From: a bacterium
GTDB taxonomy: Bacteria; Bacillota; Clostridia; Christensenellales; Aristaeellaceae
Direction: 5' to 3'
NCBI GenBank assembly: GCA_963624325.1
Contig: CAVFPH010000051.1
Span: 1-14,499, forward strand
Length of the DNA: 14,499 nt
Under the pieces are notes generated by a model. It had not been told where the DNA came from. It did not search any database and saw only the letters and a list, made by a program, of their open reading frames with translations. The translations under genes were made by a program, and so were the position numbers. This document shows, piece by piece, positions 1 through 13,908 of the stretch (the stretch's first letter is position 1; the number at the start of each line of letters is the position of its first letter).

Positions 1-36
1 CCTCATTGGCACTGCATCCGCCTTCATCTGCCACAG

Positions 37-236
37 GCAGCGGCGGATTTGTGCCTCCCGCCGTACACGCCGCCGCTGCGGATTTCAAACGGAGGCGCTT
101 GCGCCCTCCGTTGCCTCCCGCTGAGTTACTCCTGCTTTTACGTTGACTTCAATCAATGATAAGGTGGTTCTTTGTTACTTTCTTGGCACAAGAAAGTAAC
201 GTCCCCTTCGTTCTCCCCGTCTCTCCCCGTCCCCCC
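37..236 (+). repeat. Composite hairpin repeat, 'F' orientation, 5' part probably cut by the window edge: long stem, linker, H5, tail, H6, C-rich tract
   Basis: Stem gcagcggcgg (37-46) / ccgccgctgc (70-79). H5 is aacggaggcgc..gcgccctccgtt (88-112) with a bulged C. The tail gcctcccgctgagttactcctgcttttac recurs at 6307-6330 and, reverse-complemented, at 4169-4195. H6 is gttactttctt (174-184) / aagaaagtaac (190-200), followed by gtcccc-type C-rich repeats at 201-236. Confidence 0.85.
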
Positions 237-251
237 AGAAAGGAGTATTTC

Positions 252-1442
252 ATGATACAGCGATCTGCCGCCGCGATGGCGGGTGATCTTCCCTCCGCGG
301 AGCTTTTGCAGGGTGTTCTGCGGGAGCACATCCGCGGCTGCGCGCGCCTGCAGCGTCTTCACGCCTACTATGAGGGCGCGCACGACATCCTGCGCCGCGA
401 GCGCCGCAAGGGGCTGCCCAACACGCGCATTCCCCACGGCTACCCTGCCTACATCAGCGATATGGCGGCGGGATACCTGCTGGGCGCGCCCATCCGTTAC
501 GATTACGAGCCGACAGAGGCAATCTCTCCCCTGACGCAGGCGCTGACGGCCTGCGATTCGGCCTCGGTGGATGCCGAAATTGCCATGCAGCAAAGCGTGT
601 TCGGCCGCGGAACGGAACTGTGCTACGCCGATGAAAACGCGTGCCCGCACTGCATCGCGGTGGATCCGCGCAATGCCTTTACGGTGTACAGCGATGATGA
701 GCAGGTGCGCCCGCTCTTTGCCGTCACCCTGCGCCCCGAGATTGACGCGCGGGGCAACCGCGCCGGGGTGCGCGTCACGGTGTACACCGACCGCCTGATT
801 GCCCGCTACCGCGCCGCGCAGACGGGCGGCATCCGCCATCCCTACGAAACCGTGCCGCACTATTTCGGCTTTGTGCCCTTGACCGAGTACTGGAACAACG
901 CCCGTGAGCGCGGGGATTTTGAGCGTGTCCTGCCCCTGATTGACGCCTACGACCTGCTGCAAAGCGACCGCGTCAACGATAAGCAGCAGTTTGCCGATGC
1001 CCTGCTGGTGCTGACGGGTGTCGTGGGGCTGACCGCCCCCAAGGACGGGGATCAGCGCACCCCGGGCGAGCGGCTGCGGCAGGATAAAACCCTGGCGCTG
1101 CCCGACAGCACCGCCCGCGTGGAATGGCTGACCAAGGAGGCGCGGGAGACCGATGCCGATGTCCTGCGAGAGGCGCTTGCCCGCGATATCCACAAGTTTT
1201 CCATGATGCCCGATCTGACCGATCAGCAGTTTGCCGCCAACGCCAGCGGCGTGGCCATGCGCTATAAACTGCTGGGGCTGGAGCAGCTGACGGGCGTCAA
1301 GGAAAGGTGGTTCAAGGAAGGCCTGCGCGGCAGGGTGCGGCTGTTTAACCACTATCTGAGCCTGCTGGGAGCAAGGGAAATCGTGCCCGAAAAGGTGGAC
1401 TTCATCTTTACCCGTTCCCTCCCTCTCGACGAAACCGAGTAA
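252..1442 (+). CDS. Phage portal protein (SPP1 Gp6-like family)
   Basis: 396 aa from the ATG at 252, which follows aggag (241-245) with a 6-nt spacer. The upstream in-frame ATG at 156 lies inside the repeat. Portal-like stretches include DAEIAMQQSVFGRGTEL, FTVYSDDE, YDLLQSDRVNDKQQFADALLVLTG and FSMMPDLTDQQFAANASGVAMRYKLLGLEQL. It is the first gene of a head module. Confidence 0.85.
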   Translation: MIQRSAAAMAGDLPSAELLQGVLREHIRGCARLQRLHAYYEGAHDILRRERRKGLPNTRIPHGYPAYISDMAAGYLLGAPIRYDYEPTEAISPLTQALTACDSASVDAEIAMQQSVFGRGTELCYADENACPHCIAVDPRNAFTVYSDDEQVRPLFAVTLRPEIDARGNRAGVRVTVYTDRLIARYRAAQTGGIRHPYETVPHYFGFVPLTEYWNNARERGDFERVLPLIDAYDLLQSDRVNDKQQFADALLVLTGVVGLTAPKDGDQRTPGERLRQDKTLALPDSTARVEWLTKEARETDADVLREALARDIHKFSMMPDLTDQQFAANASGVAMRYKLLGLEQLTGVKERWFKEGLRGRVRLFNHYLSLLGAREIVPEKVDFIFTRSLPLDETE

Positions 1443-1460
1443 CATCCCCTCATTCCTAAG

Positions 1461-1517
1461 ATGGTTCTTTGGTCCTTTCTTGACTCAAGAAAGGACCGTC
1501 CCCCCGTCCCCCTACCC
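1461..1517 (+). repeat. H6 leader cassette copy (hairpin plus C-rich tract) upstream of the scaffold gene
   Basis: atggttctttg, then an 11-bp stem ggtcctttctt (1471-1481) / aagaaaggacc (1487-1497) with loop gactc, then gtccccccgtccccctaccc. Same layout as 166-236 and 9947-9997. Confidence 0.85.
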
Positions 1518-1533
1518 ACAGAAAGGAGCAGCA

Positions 1534-2001
1534 ATGCCCACCGAGGACACACAAACACACGAAAATCCGCCGCCCGCCCCAAGCGACGGGGAAAGCACCC
1601 AAGGAAACGATGCGGCGGAGCGGATGCTTGCCGCCGAGCGCGCGCGCTGGGAAGCGGCGCTTCTGGAGCAGCGCACCCTGCGCGAGCAGGCGGAAGCCGC
1701 CCTGCGGGCGCAGGCAGAGCGCACCCGCGCGGGGGAAATGCGCCTGCGCGCGGCAGACGAGCTTGCGCGGCGCGGGCTTCCCCACACCCTGATCTCCGTC
1801 CTGCGCTGCGACAGCGAGGAGGCGCTCAGCGACAGCCTGAGCAGCGTGGAGCAGGCCTTCCGCGCCTCCCTGGAGCAGGGAGTGCGCGAGCGTCTGCGCG
1901 GCGCGGCACCCGCCGCCCCCGCGGAGGAAACAGGCGGCAGGCGCCTTAGCTATCAGCAGGCCGTCCGCCGCTATCAGCAGCAAAAAAATGCCCAACCCTA
2001 A
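1534..2001 (+). CDS. Capsid scaffolding protein (DUF4355-like)
   Basis: 155 aa from the ATG at 1534, preceded by gaaaggag (1521-1528). Charged coiled region, then ELARRGLPHTLISVLRCDSEEALSDSLSSVEQAFRASLEQGVRERLRG. This resembles the KRGLP..L...L..DSEE...N...F...F signature recalled for DUF4355 scaffolds. Lies between portal and capsid genes. Confidence 0.72.
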   Translation: MPTEDTQTHENPPPAPSDGESTQGNDAAERMLAAERARWEAALLEQRTLREQAEAALRAQAERTRAGEMRLRAADELARRGLPHTLISVLRCDSEEALSDSLSSVEQAFRASLEQGVRERLRGAAPAAPAEETGGRRLSYQQAVRRYQQQKNAQP

Positions 2002-2017
2002 CCGAATAAGGAGGTAA

Positions 2018-3151
2018 ATGAACATGTCCGTAACCACTGTATCCAATATGATCATTCCCGAGGTCGTCTCCTCCCTGATTGACAGCAGCCTGGGCGACGG
2101 TGTCACCCTGCTCCCTTTGACCGAACAGGATGATACCCTGGTGGGTCAGCCGGGCGATACCCTGCGCTTTCCCGTGTTTGCCTACATCGGCAAGGCCGCC
2201 GTGGTGGCCGAAAACGGTCAGGTGATCCCGGGTCAACTGACGGCCAGCATGAAGAGCGTCACGGTGCAAAAGTACGCCAAGGCCATCTCCATTACCGATG
2301 AGGCGCGATTGTCGGGCTACGGCGATCCGGTGGGCGAGGGCAGCCGCCAGCTGGCGCACGCCCTGGATCATGCCGTGGATGACGATCTCTTCCAGTGCCT
2401 GAATGATGCCGGCGTTGCCCGCAAGTACGTGTCGGGGGCGCTGAGCGCCGATGTGATTGCCGACGCGCTGACGCTGTTCGGCGAGGATCCCGAGGGGCGC
2501 AAGGTGCTGTTGACCGATGCCGCCGGCCTTGCCGCCCTGCGCAAGGATCCCGATTTTGTCGGCCGCGGGGATATGGGCGAGGAGCTGGTCATGCACGGCG
2601 CCAAGGGCGAGGTGTGGGGCTGCGAAATCGTCATCACCAATAAGGTGCGCGAGAACCCGAAAACCAAGGAGAAAAGCTATTTTATCGTAAAGCCCGGCGC
2701 GCTGCGCCTGGTCAACAAGCAGGGCGCGATGGTGGAAATCGACCGCGAGCCCGAGTACATGCGCGATAACATCTTTGCCTCCCTGCACTGCGTGCCCTAC
2801 CTCTACGACGAAAGCAAGGTGGTGGCCATCACCCGCTTTACGGGGCTTTGCGTGCTTACCGAGGATGCGCAGAAGCTGGGCTTTGAAACCGCGGCGGCGG
2901 GCAGCGGCAAAACGCGCATTGTCATTCCCCCTGCCTGGACGGCGCCCTCCGGCTGCCGCTGGGTGTATACCCTGAACGCCTCCGCCGCCGAGGAGGGCAG
3001 CTACGATACGGTGTACAGCGCGGGCACCCCCTGGGGCGGCAATGACGCGCAGGTGGCCGCGGGCGGCAAGGCGTACTGCCATCTGCTGCTGCTGGACAGC
3101 GAAAACAAGCCCGTCAAAACGCTCACCCTTGCGGTGAACGCGGGCGTGTAA
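2018..3151 (+). CDS. Major capsid protein (HK97-fold type) with a C-terminal extension
   Basis: 377 aa. Strong SD aaggagg at 2008-2014. The ATG at 2018 is only 3 nt downstream, so the second ATG at 2024 may be the true start. Position directly after the scaffold gene. The N-terminal MSVTTVSNMIIPEVV...LPLT...GDTLRFPVF...A pattern is typical of Firmicute phage capsid proteins. Confidence 0.78.
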   Translation: MNMSVTTVSNMIIPEVVSSLIDSSLGDGVTLLPLTEQDDTLVGQPGDTLRFPVFAYIGKAAVVAENGQVIPGQLTASMKSVTVQKYAKAISITDEARLSGYGDPVGEGSRQLAHALDHAVDDDLFQCLNDAGVARKYVSGALSADVIADALTLFGEDPEGRKVLLTDAAGLAALRKDPDFVGRGDMGEELVMHGAKGEVWGCEIVITNKVRENPKTKEKSYFIVKPGALRLVNKQGAMVEIDREPEYMRDNIFASLHCVPYLYDESKVVAITRFTGLCVLTEDAQKLGFETAAAGSGKTRIVIPPAWTAPSGCRWVYTLNASAAEEGSYDTVYSAGTPWGGNDAQVAAGGKAYCHLLLLDSENKPVKTLTLAVNAGV

Positions 3152-3166
3152 AGGCAGGCGAAGGGC

Positions 3167-3475
3167 ATGACCTTGGATGAAATGCTGGCCTGCCTGCACA
3201 GGCTGCTGGATGTGGATGAAAAGCAGGATGAACTGCTCTGCGATCTGCTGGCCGATGCCAACGCGCTGATGCTGGCCTATATCGGGCGGGAGGAGCTGCC
3301 AAGCGCCCTCTCCCGCGCGCAGTGCCGCCTGGCGGCGGTGCTGTATAACCGCCTGGGCATGGAGGGGGAAAGCCGACGCACCGAGGGCAGCGTCACCGTC
3401 ACGGTGGATACCCTGCCCGAGGATATATTGACCCTGCTGCGCCCCTTCCGCCTGGCCGGGACGGTGAGCCTATGA
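3167..3475 (+). CDS. Head-tail connector / DNA-packaging protein (phage gp6-like)
   Basis: 102 aa. Helical pattern L..LL.VDE...DELL..LL.DA...M..YIGREELP.....RLAAVLYNRLG.EG resembles gp6-like head-tail connectors. Position after the capsid gene. ATGA overlap with the next gene. Confidence 0.68.
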   Translation: MTLDEMLACLHRLLDVDEKQDELLCDLLADANALMLAYIGREELPSALSRAQCRLAAVLYNRLGMEGESRRTEGSVTVTVDTLPEDILTLLRPFRLAGTVSL

Positions 3476-3810
3476 TGCGCCCGCGCCGACGCACCCGCTG
3501 CGTGCTCTATGCCGCCCGCTGCGTGCCCACAGAGGATGCCATCGGCGGGATCACGGCAGGCTACGCCCCCGAGCGCCGCCCCCTGCGCGGCACGATGATC
3601 CCCCGCACAAACCGTGATGTGCCCCGCATCCCCGGGCTCTGCCGGCAAAGGGAGGCCGACTTCCTGCTTTCCCCCGATGCCGATATCCGCGAAAGGGACG
3701 GCCTCTACGCCTCCGAGGCCGATCCCCTGCCCGCCTGGCGCGTGGCCGGGATAGACCGATACCCCCTGCACCTGTGCGCACGGCTGGAGGAGGCGGGCGC
3801 GAATGCGTAG
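3472..3810 (+). CDS. Putative head closure / head-tail adaptor protein
   Basis: 112 aa. Call rests on position between the gp6-like and gp10-like genes, on size, and on overlaps with both neighbours. No motif recognised with certainty. Confidence 0.45.
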   Translation: MMRPRRRTRCVLYAARCVPTEDAIGGITAGYAPERRPLRGTMIPRTNRDVPRIPGLCRQREADFLLSPDADIRERDGLYASEADPLPAWRVAGIDRYPLHLCARLEEAGANA

Positions 3811-4123
3811 CATCGGCATCCCCGCCTATCGCAAGAACCTGCAAAAGCGCATCGAAAACGCCCTGCAAAACATCGCCCGCGATGCGCAAATCCGCGCCCG
3901 CGCCGCCGTCCCCCTGGGCGACGGCCGCGACGGCGGACACCTCAGAGACTGCATTCTGGCGGACGCCGCCTTTGACGGCACGCGCGGCTATGCGCAGGTG
4001 ACCGCCGAAAACCCCCACGCCGCCTATGTGGAACTGGGCACCATCCATATGCCCGGGCTGCATTACCTGACGAACGCGCTGAACGAGACGGAGGGAAAAC
4101 GCTGGATACGTTACTTTCTTTAG
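3803..4123 (+). CDS. HK97 gp10-family tail/neck component
   Basis: 106 aa. The ...A...AR..VPLGDGRDGGHLRD.I........G.A.V......HAAYVELGT pattern resembles the HK97 gp10 family. The last ~13 codons and the TAG stop (4121-4123) lie inside the reverse-oriented H6 repeat. Confidence 0.62.
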   Translation: MRSIGIPAYRKNLQKRIENALQNIARDAQIRARAAVPLGDGRDGGHLRDCILADAAFDGTRGYAQVTAENPHAAYVELGTIHMPGLHYLTNALNETEGKRWIRYFL

Positions 4124-4380
4124 GAAAGAAAGTAACAAAGAACCATCTCAAAACCACTCAATGTCTACTTAAAAGCAGAGTAACTCAGCGGGTGGTCAAG
4201 GCGGGCGCGAGCGCCGCCTTGTTAAATCCGCAGCGGCGGCGTGTACGGCGCGAGGAGAAAATTCGCGAAGGAGGTTCCCTCCGAGAGCGAATTTTCATTC
4301 CTTACGTTTTTCACGGCCGTCAGCGCAGCTGACAGTGAAAAACGCAAAAAATCCGTTAAAAGTCGCGGACTTTTAACGGC
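4098..4380 (-). repeat. Most complete single copy of the composite hairpin repeat ('R' orientation on the + strand): H6, tail, H5, linker, H4, H3, A-run, H1
   Basis: H6 gttactttctt (4110-4120) / aagaaagtaac (4126-4136). H5 aaggcgggcgcgagcgccgcctt (4198-4220). H4 gaaaattcgc (4257-4266) / gcgaattttc (4287-4296), inner ggagg/cctcc. H3 cgtttttcac (4305-4314) / gtgaaaaacg (4335-4344), inner gtcagc/gctgac. H1 ccgttaaaagtc (4353-4364) / gacttttaacgg (4368-4379). Confidence 0.9.
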
Positions 4381-4396
4381 ACATCCGAAAGGAGTT

Positions 4397-4756
4397 ATGA
4401 TGATCGATTTGACCAACACCCTGCGCTGCGCGGTATCCGCCGTTGTGCCCTGCACGCAGGCCTACCCCGCGCGCGCGGCGGCCTTCCCCAGCGCGGCGGT
4501 GTACGAAAGCGGCAATGCCGTGCAGGCGCGCTGCAACGGCGGCGATTACCTGAGCGCGCTGGAATACACCGTTGAAATCCGCGCCTATGCCCCGGGGGAT
4601 ACCCACGCGCTGTCGGTACGCGTGGATGAGGCCGTCGGCGCGCTGGGCTTCAGCCGCGTATCCTGCACGGATCTCTACGACAGCGCCCTGCGCGTGCATC
4701 GCCGCGTGATGCGCTACCGCGTGCTGTGCGATGCGGACGGCACGCTCTATCAGTAA
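4397..4756 (+). CDS. Putative tail terminator / tail completion protein
   Basis: 119 aa from the ATG at 4397 after aaaggag (4388-4394). The upstream part of ORF 4241.. is repeat sequence. Sits immediately upstream of the major tail gene. Small alpha/beta-looking protein. Call is by position only. Confidence 0.4.
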   Translation: MMIDLTNTLRCAVSAVVPCTQAYPARAAAFPSAAVYESGNAVQARCNGGDYLSALEYTVEIRAYAPGDTHALSVRVDEAVGALGFSRVSCTDLYDSALRVHRRVMRYRVLCDADGTLYQ

Positions 4757-4769
4757 GGAGGAAAAAAGC

Positions 4770-5183
4770 ATGCCCACAAAAACCATGGGAACGGTGTTTT
4801 CCCTGACGCCCGCAGGCGGCGAGCGCACGCAGATCGGATATCTGACCTCCATCGGCGAAATCGCCTGCGACAGCGAAATGATTGATATTACCACCCTGGA
4901 TCGGCAGGACGGCTGCCGCGTTTATATGCAGGGGGTGCGGGACGCGGGCGAAATGCGCCTGACGGGCTTCCACCGAAAGGACGCGGGCGGGCAGGCGCTG
5001 GTGCGCACCCTGTACAGCAGCGGCAGGGAGGCCGTCGCGCGCGTCGATTTTGCCGACGGCACGGCCTTTGAATTCCCCGTGCTCGTCAAGGGCTGGTCCC
5101 TTGGCGCATCGCAGGTGGAGGGCGCGGTCAGCTTTGCCTGCACCCTGCGCTTAAACGGCGCCGTAGAAAGCGTGAGCGCATGA
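4770..5183 (+). CDS. Major tail (tube) protein
   Basis: 137 aa from the ATG at 4770 after taaggagg (4754-4761). GTVF.L.......T.IG.L.SIGEI..DSE.IDITTLD resembles phi13/TP901-type major tail proteins. Followed by a chaperone-like gene with an ATGA overlap. Confidence 0.6.
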   Translation: MPTKTMGTVFSLTPAGGERTQIGYLTSIGEIACDSEMIDITTLDRQDGCRVYMQGVRDAGEMRLTGFHRKDAGGQALVRTLYSSGREAVARVDFADGTAFEFPVLVKGWSLGASQVEGAVSFACTLRLNGAVESVSA

Positions 5184-5680
5184 TGCCCCGCTATGCTGAA
5201 ATATTGAACCGTGCCTGGCCGCTGAGAATCACCCTTGCAAGCGCCGTGCGCGCAAGGGAAATCGGCGGCAAGCCCCTGCGGGAACTGTGCGCGGAGGGCA
5301 TGCCCGGCACATTGCTTTTGCTTTATGCCGCCCTGGCCGGGGAGCGCAAAAGCGTGACCCTTTCCCAGGCGGCGCGCCTGCTGTCCGCCGCCGCAAAGGA
5401 TCGGGATACCCTGGATGCCCTGCTCTCCGCCCTGACGCTGGCGCTTCGGGACAGCGGCTTTGACTGGGCGGACATCAGCCGCGAAGGGGTTGAGCGCCTC
5501 ACCCATGCCGCCCTGCGTGCAGGCTGCCCCGGGGCGGCGGAACTGCCTGACATGGGCTATACCGACGCGTTCGCCCTGATTTGGCGCTTTTTGAAGGATA
5601 GGCACGAAACCCCCGCCCCCATGGACGATAAAGATATGCAGTCCCTGCTGCGCGGCATGGCGAAGGGAGGCAAAAAATGA
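5180..5680 (+). CDS. Tail assembly chaperone (gpG-like)
   Basis: 166 aa directly after the major tail gene. The N-terminal LRITLASAVRAREIGGKPLREL pattern is typical of Firmicute phage tail chaperones. Ends in GGC AAA AAA TGA, with the next ORF in the -1 frame. Confidence 0.5.
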   Translation: MMPRYAEILNRAWPLRITLASAVRAREIGGKPLRELCAEGMPGTLLLLYAALAGERKSVTLSQAARLLSAAAKDRDTLDALLSALTLALRDSGFDWADISREGVERLTHAALRAGCPGAAELPDMGYTDAFALIWRFLKDRHETPAPMDDKDMQSLLRGMAKGGKK

Positions 5681-6090
5681 CCACCCTGGATACCCTGTGC
5701 GTGCGCCTGGAGGCCGAGGCGGGGGATGTTTTCGGCAAACTGGACACCCTGGAAACGCGCCTGCATGCCCTGCGCGGGCAGGGCGCGCAGACAATCTCCC
5801 TGCCCGCAGATCTGGAAATGCGCCTGACCGTCGCGGCGGATGATGCCGTGTCCGCCGCGCTTGCGGGCGCAGGCGAAACGCTGGCCGCCGCCGTCGCGGG
5901 CCACGATGCGCAGCTGGGCGCGGCGCTCGCCTCGGCGCAGCAGGCCCTGGCCGATGCCCTTACCGCCGCCGTCAACCGCCTGTCCGCCTCGCTTAACGTT
6001 ACCGTACCGGTCTATATCGACAGCACCCGCGTGGCAAATGCGGTGGTGGGAAATGTGAAGCAAAAACTAATGATGAAGGGAGGCCGTTAA
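5677..6090 (+). CDS. 137-aa Ala-rich helical protein: either a miniature tape measure protein or the T-domain of a G/GT chaperone pair
   Basis: Has its own SD gggagg (5664-5669), about 7 nt before the ATG at 5677. Predicted coiled and Ala-rich (AADDAVSAALAGAGETLAAAVAGHDAQLGAALASAQQALADALTAAV). C-terminal VPVYIDSTRVANAVVGNV. The TAA stop (6088-6090) lies inside repeat hairpin H1. Confidence 0.4.
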   Translation: MTTLDTLCVRLEAEAGDVFGKLDTLETRLHALRGQGAQTISLPADLEMRLTVAADDAVSAALAGAGETLAAAVAGHDAQLGAALASAQQALADALTAAVNRLSASLNVTVPVYIDSTRVANAVVGNVKQKLMMKGGR

Positions 6091-6335
6091 AAGTCCGCTT
6101 CGCGGTCTTTTAACGGGTATTCCGATAAAAATCTGCGGATTTTTATCGGGGTTTGGCGGATTTTCTTGTGCGCCGATGGCGCACGGGCAGAAAATCCGTA
6201 AGGAATGAAAATTTCCTCTCGCAGGAAACCTGCTTCGGAAATTTTCTCCTCCCGCCGTACACGCCGCCGGTCCGGGTTATAAACGGAGGCGCTCGCGCCC
6301 TCCGTTGCCTCCCGCTGAATTACTCTGCGATAAGC
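6084..6335 (+). repeat. Composite hairpin repeat, full 'F' copy: H1, H2, H3, H4, linker, H5, tail
   Basis: H1 6084-6116 (14 bp, one T/T mismatch). H2 ccgataaaaatc (6122-6133) / gatttttatcgg (6138-6149). H3 cggattttct (6157-6166) / agaaaatccg (6189-6198), inner gtgcgcc/ggcgcac. H4 gaaaatttcc (6207-6216) / ggaaattttc (6237-6246), inner gcagg/cctgc. H5 aacggaggcgc..gcgccctccgtt (6282-6306). Confidence 0.9.
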
Positions 6336-6363
6336 AGCCAAGCGGGACTGCACTTCAAAACAA

Positions 6364-6628
6364 ACTTGGCGGGTGGTCAAGGCGGGCGCGAGCGCCGCCT
6401 TGTTAATTCGTATCGCGGGGCAGGTTTCGCCTGTTTCCATCGGCATTGCCGATCAAGCTATTGGGCGAAGCCGTGAAAAAGCGGCAATGCCGTCCGCGCG
6501 GGCGGGGAAAATCCGCGAAGGAGGTCTCCTCCGAGAGCGGATTTTCATTCCTCTCAGATTTTCTGACCGTGAGCGCAGCTCACAGGAAAATCTGCAATAC
6601 CCGTTGAAAATCGAAAGATTTTCAACGG
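6364..6628 (-). repeat. Composite hairpin repeat, full 'R' copy with an extra ~70-nt insert: H5, insert, H4, H3, H2
   Basis: 6364-6420 is identical to 12833-12889 (57 nt). The insert carries stem ggcattgccg (6441-6450) / cggcaatgcc (6482-6491). H4 6507-6546. H3 6555-6594. H2 ccgttgaaaatc (6601-6612) / gattttcaacgg (6617-6628). Confidence 0.9.
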
Positions 6629-6644
6629 CAAAAAAGGAGCTTTT

Positions 6645-6998
6645 ATGTCTTTACTCACCCTGAACAGCGCATCCCTGCCCGATCCCACCGCGCTGACGGT
6701 GGAAATCGGCGATGCGCTCTCCTCCGTCCGCCGCACGCTGTCGGGCACGGCGTGCGTCACCCGCGCGGGCATCAAGCGCCGCGTGCGCATCCGCTGGGCG
6801 GTGATGACGCCGCAAAACCTGACCGCCCTGCTGACCATCCTGTGCGGGGATGCCGTTGTCACCCTGGGCTACCCCGACCCCGTGACGGGCGATGGGCGGG
6901 AAATGCGCGCCTACTGCGAAAAGCGCAGCGTCGGGCTTTACCGCGGGGGCAGCGATCCTGTGTGGACAGCCGTTGAAATCACCTTGCAGGAGGCCTGA
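6645..6998 (+). CDS. Putative minimal distal tail protein (Dit-like)
   Basis: 117 aa. SD aaggag at 6634-6639. Lies immediately upstream of the large hub/fibre gene (stop 6996-6998, next ATG 7001). Call is by position only, and the protein is small for a Dit. Confidence 0.35.
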   Translation: MSLLTLNSASLPDPTALTVEIGDALSSVRRTLSGTACVTRAGIKRRVRIRWAVMTPQNLTALLTILCGDAVVTLGYPDPVTGDGREMRAYCEKRSVGLYRGGSDPVWTAVEITLQEA

Positions 6999-7000
6999 AC

Positions 7001-9895
7001 ATGAATTGCCAACAGGCTTTTTACGCGGAAAACCGCACGCTCAGCGCCTGCGGCACCATCACCCTGTGTACGGGCTACGAAATCCCCCTTACGGCTTCGG
7101 ATATCCTTGATTTTGAGGTCACAGGCGGCGTGCAGGGCGCCATGCTCTGCGGCAGCGCGCTCAGCGCCTATGGCAGGCTCACATTGGCTAATCCAAACGG
7201 CGCGTGGCTGCAGGGCGGCGAGCGCCTCGGCACGCGCACGCTGAGCGGCGCCGCGGTGAAAATCACCCTTTGCGCCGCGGCGGACGGGCAGGAATATCCT
7301 GTTCCCTGCGCGCGCTTTCTGGTGCGCGATATCCAAAGCGGCGAGGGCGAGGATACTATCACCCTCTCGGGCTATGACGAAATGCTCACCTGCCTGTCCG
7401 TGCCCTTTTCGGATGATATGACCTACCCCCAAACCCTGGGCGCGCTGGCGGAAAATATCATCCGAAAAACCGGCCTCCCCTGCGAAACCCTGCCTGCCTG
7501 CAATGCCGATGCCGTCTTGTCCGCCGCCCCCGACTGGGGCGAGGGCTGCACCCTGCGCCGCGCGCTCAGCATGGTTGCCGGCGCCATGGGCTGCTTTGCC
7601 TATGTTGCCCCGCAGGGCAGCCTTTGCCTGAAACCCGTGTGGCAGGCACCCGAGCGCACCCTGACGGCGGGCAGCTGCTTTTCCCTGTCCCTCTCCTGCG
7701 CGGATTTTGTCCTGAACCGCCTGCGCGTCACCGATGCCGCGGGGAATGTCTTGGCCGATGCCGCCTTTGATGCCGCCCTTCCCGCCGCCGCCGACAACAC
7801 GCTGGAAATCAGCGGCAGCGCGGTCTTTGCCGTCGGGGATGCCGATGCCATGGCGCAGAACATCCTAAAATCGCTTCACGGCATGACGCTGACGCCCTTT
7901 GAGGGCGAACTGCCCGCCGATCCCACCCTGCGGACGGGGGACTGCGTGGAATGGACAGATCTTCGCGGCCGCGCGCACCTTTCCTGCATCCTGCAGTGCA
8001 CATTGACGATGGGGCAGGAGGGCACGGCGCGCATCACCTGCGATCCCGATGCCTCGGGCGTCAGCCTGCCCCAGGCGCTCTCGGGCAGCGGGCTTTTGGG
8101 CGGCGGGCTGCTTGGGGATGGGGTCATCACCGCCCGCAATCTGGCCGTCGGCGCGGTGGATGCCGAGCACATCGCCGCCCGCAGCATCACGGCGGATAAA
8201 ATCGCCCCCGGCACCATCACCGCCGAAAGCGGGGTCATCGGCAGCCTGTCGGCCGATCTCATCACCGCCGGCAAGCTGGATACCGATCGGCTGATTGTGG
8301 GCGGCACCGAGTTTTCCATCGTCCGCGCCCTGAACCAAATGCCCAAGGAGGCCGCCGGGCAGGATAACCGCCTGAGCGGGGAGGTGCTGGCAGGCGGCAC
8401 GGTCTCCCCCGATAAGGTAACGGCGGATTTCGGCACGGGCATTGAAATATCGGATAACGCCGCCCTCCTTTTGCTTGCGGGCAAGCTGGACGGCACCAAC
8501 AGCCATATGGAGCTTACGCAGGATGCCATCAACATGGTGGGCGGGGATATCAACATTGCCACCGACAGATTGCAAATCCGCGGCGTCACCGACGGCGAGG
8601 AGCGCATGAGCCTGGACGGCGAGGGTCTAAGCGCCCTGCGCGTGGTGGTCAGGGAGCGCTTTTCCGCCCCCAACGCAATGCTGAAATGCCTGACGGATAC
8701 CGCCCCGTGGCAGGGCGGCGTGCAGGCCAGCCTGGATGCCCTGCCCAAATACCTGACACGCAAAACCACCCTGCGCATCCCCGCGGGCAGCTATGCCGAA
8801 AACGTCACGGTATCGGGCTTCTGCGGGGAAGAAATAATCCTCCTGTTTGAAAGCGGCGCGTATTTGAATGGCGCCGTCACCGTGCAGAACTGCGGCAGCG
8901 TCACCCTGACAGCCGTAAATTTGGGGGATGGCTGTATCTATTCCGCGGACGCGCAAATCCCCCTGTCCGCCGTATGCGTACAGCAGCTGACCGTCAGCCG
9001 CCTGTACCTTTCGGGTGACCGCGCGCGCACGCAAAGCGGCGGCGGCAGCGCGTACTGCCTGCAGGCGCAGGGCTGCAATACGGATGTATCGGGCTGCGGC
9101 CTGGAGTATGCGGACACGGCCTGCCTGCACGTGCTGGGCGGCACCGCCTGCCTGCGGGACTGCCTTGGCGGCTGCACGGGCAGCAACCCCGCCACCAACG
9201 CCAACCTCGGCACGGCGGCGCTGGGCGCGCGCGGGGCGCACATTGCAGTCTCGGGCACCGTCCCCATGACTTTGGGCGGCACCTGCGGGGAGGATTCGCA
9301 GGCATCCTATTGCACGGGCGCGCTGGGCACGCAGACGGCGGGCGGCATGCGCCTTCCCGGCGGCACCCCCATCACCCGCACCTTTGCGCCCTCCTTCCAC
9401 TGCAGCTATTCGGGCACCAGCCGCAAGGCCTACCCCGAAAACAACCTCATCTGGCAGGGCGTGTACAAAGCCTACCGCCGCGGGTACAACGATTTCAACA
9501 CCGGCACCCTGTGGTTTGAGGAGGCCGCGCAGGCGCTGCAGGGCAAAACGGTGCGGCAGGCTACCTTGACCATCCGCCGCGCCAACGGCGGCTCGTCTGA
9601 TGCGCGCAATGTGTATCTGGGCACGGTCAAGCTGCTGCAAAGCGACTGGCAGACCACCTATCGTCCGGAGTTCATCGCCCCCGAAACCCTGCCCGCCTAC
9701 CCCGCGGGAACGCTCAAACGCGAAACCGAGGGCACGTTTGACGTAACCGGCCTGATGGCGGGCGTGCAGCAGGGCTATGGCATCGGCGTGTATGAGCCCT
9801 GCGCCGCCTACAGCGGCAGCAGCTCGGCGCACTATACGCAGTTTTACGCGCTGGGAAGCGACTACGTGCCCATTCTCACGGTCACGTATGAATAA
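7001..9895 (+). CDS. Tail hub / tail-associated fibre protein (Tal-like N-terminus, fibre repeats, beta-helix-like region, C-terminal putative receptor-binding domain)
   Basis: 964 aa. The N-terminal ~350 aa resembles siphovirus prophage-tail (Tal / Gp37-like) hubs. Residues ~370-430 carry I.A..I repeats (ITARNLAVGAVDAEHIAARSITADKIAPGTITAESGVIGSLSADLITAGKLDTDRLIVGG) typical of phage fibres. Residues ~600-760 are Gly/Cys-rich and beta-helix-like. Confidence 0.75.
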   Translation: MNCQQAFYAENRTLSACGTITLCTGYEIPLTASDILDFEVTGGVQGAMLCGSALSAYGRLTLANPNGAWLQGGERLGTRTLSGAAVKITLCAAADGQEYPVPCARFLVRDIQSGEGEDTITLSGYDEMLTCLSVPFSDDMTYPQTLGALAENIIRKTGLPCETLPACNADAVLSAAPDWGEGCTLRRALSMVAGAMGCFAYVAPQGSLCLKPVWQAPERTLTAGSCFSLSLSCADFVLNRLRVTDAAGNVLADAAFDAALPAAADNTLEISGSAVFAVGDADAMAQNILKSLHGMTLTPFEGELPADPTLRTGDCVEWTDLRGRAHLSCILQCTLTMGQEGTARITCDPDASGVSLPQALSGSGLLGGGLLGDGVITARNLAVGAVDAEHIAARSITADKIAPGTITAESGVIGSLSADLITAGKLDTDRLIVGGTEFSIVRALNQMPKEAAGQDNRLSGEVLAGGTVSPDKVTADFGTGIEISDNAALLLLAGKLDGTNSHMELTQDAINMVGGDINIATDRLQIRGVTDGEERMSLDGEGLSALRVVVRERFSAPNAMLKCLTDTAPWQGGVQASLDALPKYLTRKTTLRIPAGSYAENVTVSGFCGEEIILLFESGAYLNGAVTVQNCGSVTLTAVNLGDGCIYSADAQIPLSAVCVQQLTVSRLYLSGDRARTQSGGGSAYCLQAQGCNTDVSGCGLEYADTACLHVLGGTACLRDCLGGCTGSNPATNANLGTAALGARGAHIAVSGTVPMTLGGTCGEDSQASYCTGALGTQTAGGMRLPGGTPITRTFAPSFHCSYSGTSRKAYPENNLIWQGVYKAYRRGYNDFNTGTLWFEEAAQALQGKTVRQATLTIRRANGGSSDARNVYLGTVKLLQSDWQTTYRPEFIAPETLPAYPAGTLKRETEGTFDVTGLMAGVQQGYGIGVYEPCAAYSGSSSAHYTQFYALGSDYVPILTVTYE

Positions 9896-9896
9896 G

Positions 9897-9925
9897 CCGA
9901 TGAAAGCCATTCGGCTTTCATCAGG
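9897..9925 (+). terminator. Possible weak intrinsic terminator after the fibre gene
   Basis: 10-bp stem gatgaaagcc (9899-9908) / ggctttcatc (9913-9922), loop attc, 4 nt after the TAA at 9893-9895. The downstream U-tract is poor (aggcttacccctgctttt). Confidence 0.3.
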
Positions 9926-9930
9926 CTTAC

Positions 9931-9997
9931 CCCTGCTTTTACAGATGGTTCTTTGGTCCTTTCTTATCGCAGGAAAGGACCGTTCTCCCCGTTTCTC
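9931..9997 (+). repeat. H6 leader cassette copy upstream of the holin gene
   Basis: ccctgcttttac, then agatggttctttg, then stem ggtcctttctt (9955-9965) / aggaaaggacc (9971-9981) with one G.U on the + strand, loop atcgc, then gttctccccgtttctc. Confidence 0.85.
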
Positions 9998-10011
9998 AGA
10001 AAGGAAATCGT

Positions 10012-10425
10012 ATGCAAAAATACATAAAGCCCCTGATCGGGGCAATCGGAACAATCGGCACCTACCTTGTGTATCTGCTCGGCGGCTGGGATGCCGCGCT
10101 GACGGTCATGTTTCTGCTGATGGGCTTTGACTGCCTGACAGGGCTGCTGACGGCCTTTGCGGGCAAGAGCGACAAGACGCAGGGGGGCGGCTTTCGCTCC
10201 TCGGCGGCGTTTGCGGGCATCAGCAAAAAGATGATGATGGTGGTCATCGTGATGCTCGCCACGGCGCTTGACCGCCTGACGGGGGACAGCGGCGTGTGCC
10301 GCAGTGCCGCCATCGGCTTCTATGCCGCCAATGAAGGCTTGTCCATCCTGGAAAACGCCGCCGCGCTGGGCGTGCCTTTTCCCAAAGCAATCACGGAGGC
10401 GCTGGAAGCGCTCCGTGACCGATAA
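10012..10425 (+). CDS. Holin, phage holin family 4 (TcdE-like)
   Basis: 137 aa. Three hydrophobic segments. MGFDCLTGLL.AF, S....GI.KK....V.V.LA...D and ..FY.ANEGLSILENAA.LGVP.P match the pattern recalled for the toxin-secretion/phage-lysis holin family. The last ~11 codons and the stop fall inside hairpin repeats. Confidence 0.8.
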   Translation: MQKYIKPLIGAIGTIGTYLVYLLGGWDAALTVMFLLMGFDCLTGLLTAFAGKSDKTQGGGFRSSAAFAGISKKMMMVVIVMLATALDRLTGDSGVCRSAAIGFYAANEGLSILENAAALGVPFPKAITEALEALRDR

Positions 10426-10501
10426 AAGTTTTCAACTTTTATCGGGTAGCCGCTGAAAATCTGCAAAAAAAACCGTTAAAAGTCGTCAGACTTTTAACGG
10501 C
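10391..10501 (-). repeat. Compressed composite repeat bridging the holin 3' end and the recF 3' end: H5-like, H2-like, half-H3, A-run, H1
   Basis: H5-like tcacggag(g)cgc (10391-10402) / gcgctccgtga (10408-10418) with a bulged G. H2-like ccgataaaagtt (10419-10430) / aacttttatcgg (10435-10446). gctgaaaatctgc matches an H3 3' arm. H1 ccgttaaaagtc (10473-10484) / gacttttaacgg (10489-10500). Confidence 0.8.
10463..10501 (-). terminator. Intrinsic terminator of recF (H1 hairpin plus a run of 8 T on the - strand)
   Basis: The - strand reads ccgttaaaagtctgacgacttttaacggttttttttgcag. It is a 12-bp stem followed by a run of 8 T. The recF TAA stop (10494-10496) sits in the 5' arm. Confidence 0.7.
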
Positions 10502-11597
10502 CCTGCGTTATTTCTCCGTTGTGTACCTTCAGCACCGCCTGGGGCTTTGCGCCCGTCAGGTCGGACAGGTCTGTGCAGGTCAGCAGCGTCTGCACGCCGC
10601 GGATGCGCTCCAGCAGGCGCGCGCGGCGGCCAAGGTCCAGTTCGCTTAGCACATCGTCCAGCAGCAGCAGGGGCCCTTCCCCCTGCCGCGCGGTCAGCAT
10701 GTCCAGTTCGGCCAGTCGCAGGGCAAGCACGGCAGTGCGCATCTGTCCCTGGCTGGCAAAGGCGCGCATTTCCTGCCCGCACAGGGTCAAAACCAGGTCA
10801 TCCCGATGCGGCCCCACGGTGCTGGTCATGCGGCGAAGATCCTCCTCGCGGCTTGCGTGCAGCAGGCGCAGAAAATCCTCCCGCGGCTGACTGCTTTCGC
10901 ACAGGCAGCCGCTGTAGCGCAGGGAGAAGCCCTCCTCCGCCCGCCCGCTGATGCAGGCATAGTGCCCGGCGGCCAGGCTGTTCAAATTCTGCGCGGCGTA
11001 CTGCCGCGCGCGCACCACCGGCACGGCGGCGGATGCCAGCTGCTCATCCCAGGCATCCAGCTGGGCAAGGTTCCCGCCGCGGGACAGGTCACGCAGCAGG
11101 GCGTTTCGCTGCTTCAGGGCGGCATTGTAGGTTTGCAGGGCGTAGTAATACCCCGCCCCGCACTGGGAAAGCAGCATGTCGGTAAAGCGCCGCCTGCCCT
11201 GGGGCGCGCCGCGCACAATGTCCAGATCCTCGGGGGAGAACATCACGCACGTCACATGCCCCATCAGCTCCCCCGTGCGCGCGGCGGTCTTGCCGTTGAT
11301 GTATATCAGCTTGCGCTTTTTCTGCATGGGGGCGTACAGGCGCACGCCCACCTCGTCCACCCCGTCCCCGCGCTGCACGCGCACCTGCACGGCGGCGGTT
11401 TCCTGATCCGCGCGGATCATCTCCCGATCATTGGCCGTGCGGTGGCTGCGCCCCAGGCAGCACAAATGCACCGCTTCCAGCAGGTTGGTTTTGCCGGCGC
11501 CGTTTTCGCCCACAAACACCGTAACCCCCTCGGGCGGCGACAGCAGCACCTGATGATAGCTGCGGAAATCGTGCAGGCGCAGGGTTTTCAGCTGCAT
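10494..11597 (-). CDS. recF: DNA replication and repair protein RecF
   Basis: 367 aa. MQLKTLRLHDFRSY, Walker A GENGAGKTNLLEA, SGR...F.L.Y, and LLLDDVLSELD signature / Walker B. Full length. Confidence 0.95.
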   Translation of the reverse strand: MQLKTLRLHDFRSYHQVLLSPPEGVTVFVGENGAGKTNLLEAVHLCCLGRSHRTANDREMIRADQETAAVQVRVQRGDGVDEVGVRLYAPMQKKRKLIYINGKTAARTGELMGHVTCVMFSPEDLDIVRGAPQGRRRFTDMLLSQCGAGYYYALQTYNAALKQRNALLRDLSRGGNLAQLDAWDEQLASAAVPVVRARQYAAQNLNSLAAGHYACISGRAEEGFSLRYSGCLCESSQPREDFLRLLHASREEDLRRMTSTVGPHRDDLVLTLCGQEMRAFASQGQMRTAVLALRLAELDMLTARQGEGPLLLLDDVLSELDLGRRARLLERIRGVQTLLTCTDLSDLTGAKPQAVLKVHNGEITQGR

Positions 11598-12055
11598 TAC
11601 TTGTGATACCTTTCGTTTGCGTTGATTTTGTGGGCGCGGTAGATCTGCTCCAGCAGCATCACCCGCGCCAATTGATGCGGAAACGTCATGGGGGACATTG
11701 ATATCCGGCAGTCCGCGCGGGCAATCACCGCGCTGTCCAGCCCCAGCGATCCGCCGATGACAAACACCACCCGCGCCCCGCGCATGGCGCGCTCCCGAAA
11801 AAAGGCGGCAAGGGAGGGGCTGTCCGTCATTTTGCCGTCAATGCACAGCGCCGCCACGTAGTCATCCGCCCGAATGTGGGCAAGCATGGCCGCGCCTTCC
11901 TTTTTCATGGCCTGCGCGCCCTCGCTTTCGGGCTGATCGGGCACCTCAATGATTTCCAGCTTGGCGTAGCGGCTCATGCGCTTCTGATACTCGGCGGCGG
12001 CATCCCGCCAATAGCTTTCGCGCAGGCGTCCCGCGCACACAATGGCTATCGGCAT
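11597..12055 (-). CDS. rlmH: 23S rRNA (pseudouridine1915-N3)-methyltransferase RlmH (SPOUT family)
   Basis: 152 aa from the internal ATG at 12055 (MPIAIVCAGRL...). The listed longer ORF is an Arg/Gly-rich extension. IGGS.G, MTFPHQLARVMLLEQIYRA and the C-terminal YHK are typical of RlmH. The stop overlaps the recF start (TAATG). Confidence 0.9.
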   Translation of the reverse strand: MPIAIVCAGRLRESYWRDAAAEYQKRMSRYAKLEIIEVPDQPESEGAQAMKKEGAAMLAHIRADDYVAALCIDGKMTDSPSLAAFFRERAMRGARVVFVIGGSLGLDSAVIARADCRISMSPMTFPHQLARVMLLEQIYRAHKINANERYHK

Positions 12056-12693
12056 AGGATGATCCGCGCCGCCTCCCGCAGGTTCTCGCACACCGCGTCG
12101 CAGAAGGGCGCAAGCTCGGGGGTGTAGGGCTGCATATCGGGCACCATCACGGTGAACGCCCCCGCCGCGCGTCCCGCGCGCAGGCCTTTGGGGGAGTCTT
12201 CCAGCACCGCGCACTGATTGATGGGCACGTTCAAAAGCTCGGCCGCCCGCAGGAACATGTCGGGCGCGGGCTTGCTGGGCAGGCCGATATCGCAGGGCAC
12301 CAGCGCCTCAAAATAATCGCTGATGCCGGCGCTGGCCAGGTTGCGTACCACCTCGCTGGTCGGGCTGCCCGATGCCACCGCCATGCGCAGTCCCGCCTGA
12401 CGGAAAGCCTCCACCGTCTCCTTCAGGTAGGGCTTTTCGGGCGCGCCGTGCGCCGCCACATAGCGGTTGCCCGCCGCGCGGTAGGCAGGCCAAAAGTCCT
12501 CGGGACGGTAGGCGGGAATCAGGGGCGAAAGGTATTCGTCCACCGCCTTTTCGCTGGTGCCCAGGGTGTGCAGGATCATCTCCTCCGTAAGTTCATACCC
12601 CAGGGAGTGCGCCACCTCGCCTGCCAGCTTGCCGAACAGCCGCTCGGTGTCAAACATCAGTCCGTCCATGTCAAAGAGTACCGCGGTAATCAT
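12046..12693 (-). CDS. HAD-superfamily hydrolase, subfamily IA (phosphatase / beta-phosphoglucomutase-like)
   Basis: 215 aa from the ATG at 12693 with SD aggagg (12701-12706, - strand). MITAVLFDMDGLMFDTE gives the DxDG motif I. ASGS fits motif II. VLEDSPKGLRAGRAAG fits motif IV. Overlaps the rlmH start by 10 nt. Confidence 0.85.
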   Translation of the reverse strand: MITAVLFDMDGLMFDTERLFGKLAGEVAHSLGYELTEEMILHTLGTSEKAVDEYLSPLIPAYRPEDFWPAYRAAGNRYVAAHGAPEKPYLKETVEAFRQAGLRMAVASGSPTSEVVRNLASAGISDYFEALVPCDIGLPSKPAPDMFLRAAELLNVPINQCAVLEDSPKGLRAGRAAGAFTVMVPDMQPYTPELAPFCDAVCENLREAARIILCR

Positions 12694-12722
12694 ATAAAAC
12701 CTCCTATCGGTTGCAGTAACAA

Positions 12723-13057
12723 AGGAAAATCCGCCATAACCCGTTGAAAATCGCAGATTTTCAACGGAATAACGGCTCGTCCGACGAGCATAGCCTTTTG
12801 GTACGCCCCTTCCAAGCAAGACAGCAGAAGTAACTTGGCGGGTGGTCAAGGCGGGCGCGAGCGCCGCCTTGTTAATTCGTATCGCGGGGCTTTGCCGCGC
12901 GGGCGGGGAAAATTCGCGAAGGAGGTTCCCTCCGAGAGCGAATTTTCATTCCTCTCAGATTTTCCGGCCGTGCGCTTTGCGCACAGGAAAATCTGCAATA
13001 ACCCGTTGAAAATCGCAGATTTTCAACGGAATAACGGCTCGTCCGATGAGCATAGCC
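12723..13057 (-). repeat. Composite hairpin repeat in a housekeeping intergenic region, arranged as a 262-bp-period partial tandem duplication
   Basis: 12736-12795 equals 13000-ish copy 12998-13057 (60 nt, one mismatch, 12785 c versus 13047 t). Similarity extends back to 12723 / 12985. Between them are H5 (12848-12870), H4 (12908-12947) and H3 (12956-12995). H2 occurs at 12741-12767 and 13003-13029. Confidence 0.9.
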
Positions 13058-13895
13058 ACGCACCTGCGATCATGATCCCCAGCGCCGCCAGATAGCTTGC
13101 CTGCGGCACCTCGCGGAAGATGATCAGCGACAGCAGCGCCCCGATAAAGGGGGATACCGCGTAGTACGCGCTGGTGCGCGCCGCGCCCAGCAGCCGCTGG
13201 GCATACACGTAAAAGTAAATGCTGAGCCCGTAGGCCACAAACCCTACCGCCAGCACGGGCAGAATCAGGGAAAGCGAGGGCATCCTCTCCCCGCAAAGCA
13301 GAGCGATGATTACCGAGCCCGTGCCCGAAAAAATGCCCTTCAGCAGCACAATCTGCAGGGGATCCTTGCCCGACAGCCGCCGCGTGCAGTTGTTTTCAAA
13401 TCCCCAGCACACGCACGCCAGCAATATCAGCAGCGATCCCGCCGAAAAGCGCAGGCTTGCCGCGTCCTCCACCGACAGGATGGCGCAGCTGACCGCCGTA
13501 AACAGGATGCCCGCCCACAGCCGCGGGCTGACGGACTCCCCGAAAATCACCAGGGCGATGATCGCCGTGGCCACAATCTCAAAATTGTTAAGCAGCGAGG
13601 CCGCCGCCGCCGAGGTGGATTTCAGCCCCAGCATCAGGCACACGGGCGCGGCAATGTCCAGCAGGATCATGGCCGCCGTCCAGGGCAATTCCCGCCGTGT
13701 CAGGCGCAATTCCCGCCCCTGCTTTCCCCGCAGACGCCGAAAAAGGGCAATAAGCACCATGCCGATCCCCGCCCCGATGTAGAGCAGCCCCGCCATGACA
13801 GTGGGCGGCACGGACACCAAAAGCAGCTTGGACAGCGGCGCATTCAGCGCGTAGAGCGCCGCGGCCAGCAGCGCCAGCGCAATCCCCCTGCGCAT
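13023..13895 (-). CDS. EamA/DMT-family transporter (about 10 TM)
   Basis: 290 aa from the ATG at 13895, SD aggaggggga (13901-13910, - strand). Hydrophobic throughout. ALLAAALYALNAPLSKLLL and SAYYAVSPFIGALLSLIIF are typical of the two EamA repeats. The last ~11 codons and the TGA stop lie in repeat sequence. Confidence 0.85.
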   Translation of the reverse strand: MRRGIALALLAAALYALNAPLSKLLLVSVPPTVMAGLLYIGAGIGMVLIALFRRLRGKQGRELRLTRRELPWTAAMILLDIAAPVCLMLGLKSTSAAAASLLNNFEIVATAIIALVIFGESVSPRLWAGILFTAVSCAILSVEDAASLRFSAGSLLILLACVCWGFENNCTRRLSGKDPLQIVLLKGIFSGTGSVIIALLCGERMPSLSLILPVLAVGFVAYGLSIYFYVYAQRLLGAARTSAYYAVSPFIGALLSLIIFREVPQASYLAALGIMIAGAWLCSSDEPLFR

Positions 13896-13908
13896 CAAAC
13901 TCCCCCTC

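Follow-up and report, generated by a model that had tools for sequence, protein, structure and literature searches.

A probable domesticated, gene transfer agent-like phage operon with a miniature tape measure in an uncultured gut Clostridia bacterium

Is a compact run of phage head and tail genes beside recF in a gut bacterium a working prophage, the remains of one, or a particle-producing locus that the host has kept for itself? The window analysed here is a whole stretch of 14,499 nt (contig CAVFPH010000051.1 of assembly GCA_963624325.1, positions 1 to 14,499 of the forward strand) from an uncultured member of the Clostridia (Christensenellales; Aristaeellaceae), and has a GC content of 62-65%. 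Its + strand carries, from 252 to 10425, an unbroken run of phage morphogenesis genes, many of them translationally coupled, as identified by Pfam, PHROG and structure evidence. An earlier note, made from the letters of the window, had proposed a domesticated locus encoding particles of the gene transfer agent (GTA) or tailocin kind. We conclude, at a probability of roughly 60%, that the run belongs to a ~12.7 kb domesticated, phage-derived and vertically inherited GTA-like "viriform" operon of a high-GC gut bacterium. Host genes upstream with no lysogeny or replication genes, a cluster conserved intact among related species, purifying selection and host-like composition all support the domestication part of the proposal. 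The tailocin part was excluded: the portal, scaffold, capsid and large terminase (TerL) genes are present and conserved, and both F- and R-type tailocins were rejected on this basis. No published description of this cluster turned up in our literature searches.

The genes at 252-10425 are the portion of the cluster that falls inside the window; the true start lies ~2.5 kb 5' of position 1. Three assemblies of the window species all end 100-220 bp 5' of the portal gene, and the window starts at about the same spot. Searching with the TerL of the closest relative located a 406-aa TerL on a contig (L093; such L numbers denote the contigs and loci compared) of the same two metagenome-assembled genomes (MAGs; GCA_963620175.1 and GCA_963614755.1) from the same read set; L093 and L001 come from the same MAG. 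The order on L093 is ABC transporter genes, an AAA protein, PSP1, holB, darA, a lipoprotein gene, an NlpC/P60 gene (~170 aa), a 71-aa open reading frame (ORF), TerL and then 339 nt to the contig end, the last 140 nt of which match window positions 1-140 at 97.9%. Because the contig ends match, the join of the terminase contig to the window is seen in three assemblies and TerL is followed by the portal gene in every relative, we infer a full cluster of ~12.7 kb beginning with the NlpC/P60 gene. Upstream of position 1, where the earlier note had pointed to terminase, integrase, repressor or replication genes and att repeats as informative, the terminase, 71-aa ORF and NlpC/P60 genes give way to host genes: within flanks that reach at most 10 kb, no integrase, repressor or replication module was found upstream in the same assemblies, and no tRNA or att-like direct repeats were found at the cluster ends.

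This extension also bears on lysis. Family searches returned no amidase, muramidase or peptidase match among the window ORFs, so the earlier note was right that no endolysin lies in the window, but its picture of a lone holin did not extend to the whole cluster. The NlpC/P60 protein at the 5' end, which is without a signal peptide, shares 35% identity (E 6e-25) with its counterparts located immediately 5' of the holin in L089, L026, L035, L036 and L064; Amidase_3 occupies that pre-holin position in other relatives (L086, L008 and L013). The endolysin is therefore probably not missing in the window species, and the holin seems alone in the window because the operon opens with the predicted endolysin gene and closes with that of the holin.

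TerL, 5' of the window, is of the Terminase_3 type, named "PBSX family" by NCBI, with intact ATPase and nuclease domains. Immediately 5' of it is a conserved ORF of 69-74 aa. The 71-aa version has no HTH domain and no Pfam match, and its profile gave no meaningful match against the PDB. By position it may correspond to the small terminase (TerS), an identity that is unproven and is not claimed here. A TerS deficient in DNA binding is a hallmark of GTAs, as in RcGTA. The GTA of Faecalibacterium prausnitzii (FpGTA) has such a TerS as well (PMC12946183).

Just 5' of the first cluster gene we observed a TGTCR-N5-TGTCR direct repeat followed by a TTTCCTG..TATAAT-like -10 box (L093:9042-9066; L059:8439, L085:8445, L069:8427, L083:8446). 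Across 740 kb of related loci, six of the seven strict TGTCR-N5-TGTCR matches fall at the first-gene position, which in the window species is that preceding NlpC/P60, making the repeat a candidate activator or operator site. Species in which the cluster follows sleB have a CCGTCA..GCCATGGC element instead. A promoter and terminator consensus scan of the window was uninformative, with counts near shuffle expectation. An apparent duplication in L096, with a 160-aa gene on either side of TerL, was discarded as an assembly artefact: the two ends of this MAG contig, L096:1-1285 and 3846-5130, are perfect inverted repeats of 1285 nt, and the false join lies at a dispersed repeat.

To what extent is the absence of phage modules general? 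For 13 further loci, Pfam was run on 7 kb of sequence 5' of the cluster, with ORFs picked by a codon log-odds model that reproduced known annotations. The 25 commonest of 72 families were all housekeeping; a family occurring in one or two loci would not appear among them. The same survey of 25 control loci with a different terminase yielded Terminase_2 in 11, HTH_3 in eight, Peptidase_S24 in six and VapE in three, which demonstrates that the method detects phage modules where they are present. In IMG/VR the cluster occurs only as 8.5-13 kb "viral" contigs starting at the small ORF, and no larger phage with this tail module was found there. A functional temperate prophage was rejected because flanks of at most 10 kb showed no integrase, att sites, repressor or replication module, and a capsid-forming satellite such as a phage-inducible chromosomal island was rejected as well, with no integrase or primase found in these flanks and a full tail gene set present.

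The portal search reported 892 homologues, and by portal profile, relatives are present in 268 species-representative genomes, mostly MAGs labelled Christensenellales, Limiplasma or Oscillospiraceae. The complete set of genes, which includes the short ORF 5' of the gene for a 117-aa tail protein, was found at 45-85% identity in L007, L008, L013 and L086, and more distantly in about 20 further loci. Conservation of the recF-proximal site across species, which the earlier note had raised, did not hold: adjacency to recF is specific to the window species and was rejected as a conserved feature, since the relatives carry the cluster elsewhere. The upstream neighbour is sleB-ypeB in L007 (downstream side not resolved) and in L086, L008 and L013, which have rnfB downstream; L089 has bacA upstream and a flavin reductase gene downstream, and in L059, L083 and L085 truA lies upstream and the downstream side is beyond the locus. 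The arrangement of sleB-ypeB followed by ORF, TerL and portal is common to L006-L010, L013 and L086, and one chromosomal site, sleB-ypeB / cluster / rnfB, is occupied in at least six related species. In L007, the closest relative, the holin gene is immediately followed (L007:19863-20538) by two small ORFs, absent from the window, with weak matches to a BetR-type HTH and to Sigma70_r4_2/DUF1492; from these matches they could be regulators of the cluster. The flanks in the window species (10494-14499: recF; L093:1-8934: darA-holB-yaaT/PSP1) consist of genes that are near the replication origin in Bacillus subtilis, and the cluster abuts dnaN-containing regions in other species; an origin-proximal preference is possible.

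Selection on the cluster was measured against L007. Purifying selection was evident, and every ORF was intact in the related species, with no stop codon in any orthologue. Values of dN/dS ranged from 0.15 to 0.63, on a dS that is probably underestimated through saturation: 0.15 for the capsid, 0.21 for the portal, 0.25 for both the tape measure and the holin, 0.36 for the hub and about 0.6, the highest, for the scaffold and chaperone. Within the species, the cluster has 18-22 synonymous versus 10-11 non-synonymous differences, and synonymous divergence (pS) is 0.008-0.009 in the cluster and ~0.01 in recF and rlmH. Across six sleB-linked species, the dN of TerL, capsid and portal correlated with that of sleB plus ypeB (r = 0.90, 0.91 and 0.71, respectively), and omega and dS of the cluster genes fall in a range similar to that of the host genes sleB and ypeB. 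The relatives thus show vertical inheritance of the cluster at one fixed site, divergence in step with the host genes beside it, and purifying selection.

These results bear directly on the idea of a cryptic prophage remnant, a temperate siphovirus that lost its lysogeny and replication modules and is decaying neutrally. Such a remnant would explain why no integrase or replication genes were found, the deletion variant in a related species (L087, below), the repeat elements inserted between genes, and an amidase that is present in L086 and absent from both the window and L007. It is nonetheless quite unlikely, as 13-16 ORFs are intact in every species examined without stop codons at 45-85% amino-acid identity, dN/dS is well below 1, the same site is used in at least six species with divergence that tracks host genes, the repeats lie between genes and never within them, and the translationally coupled overlaps are preserved.

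The composition of the cluster resembles that of its host, as the earlier note had stated. GC content at third codon positions (GC3) is 0.81 in the cluster and 0.78 in host genes; the correlation of relative synonymous codon usage (RSCU) between cluster and host is 0.96, against 0.94 between one half of the host genes and the other. Codon usage of the cluster is indistinguishable from that of host genes. Dispersed repeats occur in every sizeable cluster spacer (43-217, 1446-1505, 4093-4383, 6100-6633 and 9930-9994), and a hairpin lies at 10467-10501. The same repeat families are present in the host spacer at 12720-13060 and in host spacers of L093, and are genome-wide; these copies bear out the earlier description of host-type repeats between gene blocks, including the one shared by the holin and recF. 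The spacer repeats comprise two or three families of hairpins like repetitive extragenic palindromes (REP) or miniature inverted-repeat transposable elements (MITE), found host-wide and also between housekeeping genes. An Rfam scan of the window for repeat elements gave no match at E <= 0.1. One block of 495 bp (6150-6644) is strain-specific: L001 and L002 lack it, although the rest of their sequence matches the window at 99.4-99.5% identity.

With this evidence in place, membership of an active mobile element appears highly improbable. A temperate phage with integrase and replication genes located past the assembled flanks, or a helper-dependent satellite, would be compatible with flanks seen to 10 kb at most, with the different site in the window species and with the weak HTH and sigma-like ORFs after the L007 holin. 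Such an element is difficult to reconcile with the housekeeping genes adjoining both ends in several species, the att repeats and tRNAs not found, the host-like codon usage and the co-divergence with flanking genes; moreover, a complete form looks like prophage L177, with its 1114-aa tape measure and serine recombinase.

What particle would a domesticated operon of this kind encode? The assignments in the window rest on Pfam, PHROGs and structure evidence, which confirmed all gene calls of the earlier portal-to-holin run, including the holin as the last + strand gene with convergent recF beside it. The features are as follows.

1-251, no strand: spacer between the out-of-window large terminase gene and the portal gene, made of host dispersed repeats
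252-1442, + strand: portal protein, SPP1 type (SPP1_portal PF05133, E 4e-75)
1446-1505, no strand: host dispersed hairpin repeat of the GGTCCTTTCTT..AAGAAAGGACC type, with copies also in L093 host spacers
1534-2001, + strand: head scaffolding protein (DUF4355/Gp46, E 1e-6)
2018-3151, + strand: major capsid protein of the TP901-1/P335 type, extended at its C terminus by ~100 aa (phrog_544, E 6e-56)
3167-3475, + strand: head-tail connector, gp6-like (PF05135, E 7e-10)
3472-3810, + strand: neck protein without a family match, assigned by position; ORF kept in L007, L008, L013 and L086
3803-4123, + strand: HK97-gp10-like tail completion / Neck1 protein (PF04883, E 1e-4; phrog_5, E 1e-8)
4093-4383, no strand: host dispersed repeat block dividing head and neck genes from tail genes
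4400-4756, + strand: tail terminator (phrog_78, E 3e-5; the L089 orthologue matches Tail_completion_gp17)
4770-5183, + strand: tail tube protein (phrog_158, E 1e-17; PF06199)
5180-5680, + strand: probable tail assembly chaperone, by position between tube and tape measure; no family match
5677-6090, + strand: predicted miniature tape measure protein, 137 aa (hhalign to the mini tape measures of relatives)
6100-6633, no strand: host dispersed repeat block
6645-6998, + strand: small tail-tip protein, 117 aa, in the distal-tail (Dit/gpM) position (phrog_1194, E 5e-11)
7001-9895, + strand: fusion of a tail hub (Tal) with fibre and receptor-binding domains, 964 aa (AlphaFold2 (AF2)/Foldseek hub fold)
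9930-9994, no strand: host dispersed hairpin repeat in the spacer between hub gene and holin
10012-10425, + strand: holin, Phage_holin_4_1 (TcdE family; PF05105, E 1e-31), the last cluster gene
10467-10501, no strand: hairpin repeat copy of family D4 in the holin/recF spacer, at the right cluster boundary
10494-11597, - strand: recF, a convergent host gene, 68 nt from the holin stop

Past recF are rlmH and genes for a HAD hydrolase, an EamA transporter and a pyroglutamyl peptidase.

A ribosome-binding site precedes the portal gene at about 235-245, and the same 155-aa scaffold gene was called in L001 and L002. The capsid protein shares 38% identity with the head protein of TP901-1 and matched Gp6 of PDB 9m66 at E 3e-41 over residues 6-272 only. 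The remaining residues, 273-377 (window 2834-3151), form a C-terminal stretch of ~100 aa past the region aligned to TP901-1-type capsids and 9m66, which may be a decoration or Ig-like domain. The product of 3472-3810 is, by its position, probably the head closure protein. A repeat at 4093-4178 overlaps the 3' end of the neighbouring gp10-like gene (3803-4123), and 7-8 of the 10-11 within-species non-synonymous differences are in this gene, mostly in the repeat-overlapped end; the repeat seems to have remodelled the C-terminus of the gp10-like protein.

The tail genes suggest a very short tail. The ORF preceding the 117-aa gene encodes 137-285 aa in 19 loci, usually after two chaperone-like ORFs of ~100 aa each, which in the relatives occupy the chaperone position. 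In nine of nine relatives tested, these mini tape measures matched only the C-terminal 130-170 aa of tape measure PHROGs that are 1000-1700 aa long. The 137-aa family of the window aligned with the 184-285-aa mini tape measures of relatives at an hhalign probability of 97.2% (E 2.9e-11), with both termini matching and the central segment missing. By these alignments the 137-aa protein is a miniature of the 1000-1700-aa phage tape measures, and at ~1.5 A per residue its length implies a predicted tail of ~20 nm. The alternative that the repeat block at 6100-6633 breaks a long tape measure gene was rejected, because the 137-aa ORF is unchanged, and directly precedes the 117-aa gene, in strains that lack the insertion.

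The 117-aa gene is always immediately 5' of the hub gene in relatives. Its single-sequence AF2 model was unusable (pLDDT 43), and PDB sequence searches with the 117-aa and 964-aa proteins gave no match. Residues 1-350 of the 964-aa protein were modelled at a pLDDT of ~90 and adopt the hub fold of Mu gp44 and T4 gp27 (Foldseek E 2e-12, probability 1.0), while the C-terminal 62% is 48% identical to the Tal of prophage L177. L177 (JAFUNX010000016.1), in a related MAG, is a complete prophage with HK97-type head genes, the 1114-aa tape measure, an amidase, a holin and a serine recombinase. The shared Tal sequence indicates a receptor-binding module likely exchanged between phages and the domesticated cluster. 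Mini tape measures of 184-285 aa are also encoded in control loci L014, L021, L028, L041, L043 and L049, which have a different TerL and a canonical Terminase_2 TerS; their upstream flanks are often host-like, and sometimes an S24/HTH repressor adjoins TerS. These loci may be further GTA-like families, or a short-tailed phage lineage ancestral to the window cluster.

Taken in order, the operon would consist of a promoter with TGTCA direct repeats, the NlpC/P60 endolysin, the 71-aa ORF in the TerS position, TerL, portal, scaffold, capsid and neck proteins, followed by the terminator, tube, chaperone, 137-aa tape measure, 117-aa tip protein, hub/receptor-binding protein and holin. We propose that it would be expressed by a subpopulation of cells, in which TerL and a small partner without a DNA-binding domain would package DNA into capsids by a headful mechanism. 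A very short non-contractile tail of ~20 nm would then be joined to the head, the producer cell would be lysed by the holin and NlpC/P60, and the released particles would adsorb to related cells via the 964-aa hub/receptor-binding protein.

Whether such particles would transfer genes or kill is the next point, and the closest model for killing is PBSX of Bacillus subtilis. Like the cluster, PBSX is a Gram-positive defective prophage-like element with a Terminase_3 TerL, and it packages host DNA, which may be the cargo here. It differs in its size (~28 kb), its contractile tail with a sheath, for which the cluster has no gene, its own xre repressor, and in that it kills rather than transduces. 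A PBSX-like use of the cluster, with domesticated, DNA-containing particles serving as a bacteriocin, in kin discrimination or for mere lysis, is unlikely in our judgement, though all of the domestication evidence fits it equally, the terminase carries the PBSX family name, and the distal 62% of the 964-aa protein, common to the Tal of a real prophage, implies that adsorption specificity is maintained; the same caveat was raised for FpGTA (PMC12946183). Weighing on the other side are the lack of a sheath or contractile tail, a ~20 nm non-contractile tail with no obvious killing mechanism, and TerL, portal and capsid genes kept at low dN/dS, which suggests that packaged DNA matters. The evidence fits DNA delivery and killing alike, and function as a GTA rather than as a PBSX-like particle is a proposal.

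The GTA-like reading also rests on comparison with described systems. The cluster is a chromosomal, phage-derived set of structural and packaging genes without replication, integration or lysogeny genes of its own in the flanks covered, and synteny, dN/dS and co-divergence indicate that hosts maintain it, although the window species has it at another site. In human faecal virus-like particles, bacterial DNA is encapsidated most often by GTA-like packaging (Borodovich et al., Nat Commun 2026, PMC12946183). The precedent in gut Clostridia is FpGTA, which is encoded in two operons and forms podovirus-like particles with 8.5 kb of DNA (PMC12946183). Both FpGTA and the present cluster occur in gut Clostridia, have a small ORF without a DNA-binding domain (in the cluster a TerS candidate by position) and after it TerL, portal, scaffold and capsid, are compact, lack replication genes, carry a holin and an endolysin (predicted in the cluster) for lysis and are near-universal within the host clade. 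In its described architecture FpGTA differs: ten ORFs form an operon of 10.5 kb, the tail and lysis genes form another of 5.5 kb located ~125 kb away, and no tube or tape measure is mentioned (PMC12946183). The cluster is one operon of ~12-13 kb whose terminator, tube, chaperone, mini tape measure and hub are siphovirus parts. FpGTA is documented by transmission electron microscopy (TEM), proteomics and packaged DNA; the cluster is known from its genes.

RcGTA and other alphaproteobacterial GTAs (Rhodobacter, Caulobacter) resemble the cluster in being a ~14 kb head-tail cluster without integration or replication genes, in vertical inheritance, purifying selection and host-like composition, in a short tape measure and tail, in a TerS without DNA-binding specificity (unproven for the cluster) and in an endolysin and holin that are not adjacent. 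RcGTA has an HK97-type portal, protease and capsid, whereas the cluster has an SPP1-type portal, Terminase_3, a DUF4355 scaffold and a TP901-1-type capsid (Phage_capsid_4); the cluster is further distinguished by its Gram-positive host, lysis genes inside the operon and no identified counterpart of CtrA or GafA. Membership of the RcGTA family was rejected, as the building blocks are not homologous. The P335/TP901-1 siphoviruses and prophage L177 share with the cluster the capsid (TP901-1), the hub/Tal fold and the distal part of the 964-aa protein (L177 Tal). They differ in their 33-41 kb genomes, integrases, replication modules and tape measures of ~1000 aa or longer; the cluster has a tape measure of 137 aa and none of the rest.

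Several observations weigh against a domesticated GTA. The cluster is known from genes alone, with all sequences coming from MAGs or metagenome contigs, and a repeat element spans the point where the terminase contig meets the window. The window species has the cluster between holB and its neighbours and recF, and the relatives between sleB and rnfB; therefore at least one relocation has taken place. In one strain of a related species, L087, a 7.3 kb internal deletion relative to L086:11960-19255 runs from within the capsid gene to a 252-aa gene, with a 13-nt overlap at the junction, leaving TerL, portal, scaffold, amidase and holin; because of it, the cluster is dispensable in that strain. 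The ~70-aa ORF aligns weakly to the C-terminal segment of a Terminase_2 TerS (hhalign probability 22%, E 1e-3). A short tape measure is also found in relatives with a canonical TerS, and the phage lineage may have had it from the start, before any domestication. The correlations of dN use non-independent species pairs, and describe co-divergence rather than formally test it. Finally, the cluster may package itself, given that the nearest cultured relatives of its capsid, the TP901-1/P335 phages, have 33-41 kb genomes.

In the gut, GTA-like packaging has been recorded for the Christensenellales MAGs QANA01 (~6.3 kb) and HGM11616 (~4.1 kb), with no locus assigned (PMC12946183); a responsible locus has so far been identified only for Faecalibacterium. 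Our broader suggestion, which we hold tentatively and at less than even odds, is that the cluster and its relatives in dozens of Christensenellales/Oscillospirales-like species represent an ancient, independently domesticated siphovirus-type GTA with a miniature tape measure, and the genetic basis of the ~4-6 kb packaging in QANA01 and HGM11616. Prophage predictors and IMG/VR list such clusters as viruses, so that counts of gut "prophages" are inflated. Useful markers for genome mining are a Terminase_3 TerL preceded by a ~70-aa ORF, a portal of SPP1 type, a tape measure of 137-285 aa and a hub fused to receptor-binding domains. The series of tape measures from 1114 to 285 to 137 aa offers a natural set for studying tail shortening in domestication. 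If the domesticated GTA-like operon is real, it would provide a sequence-defined candidate for a second, evolutionarily independent GTA family in an abundant and hard-to-culture order.

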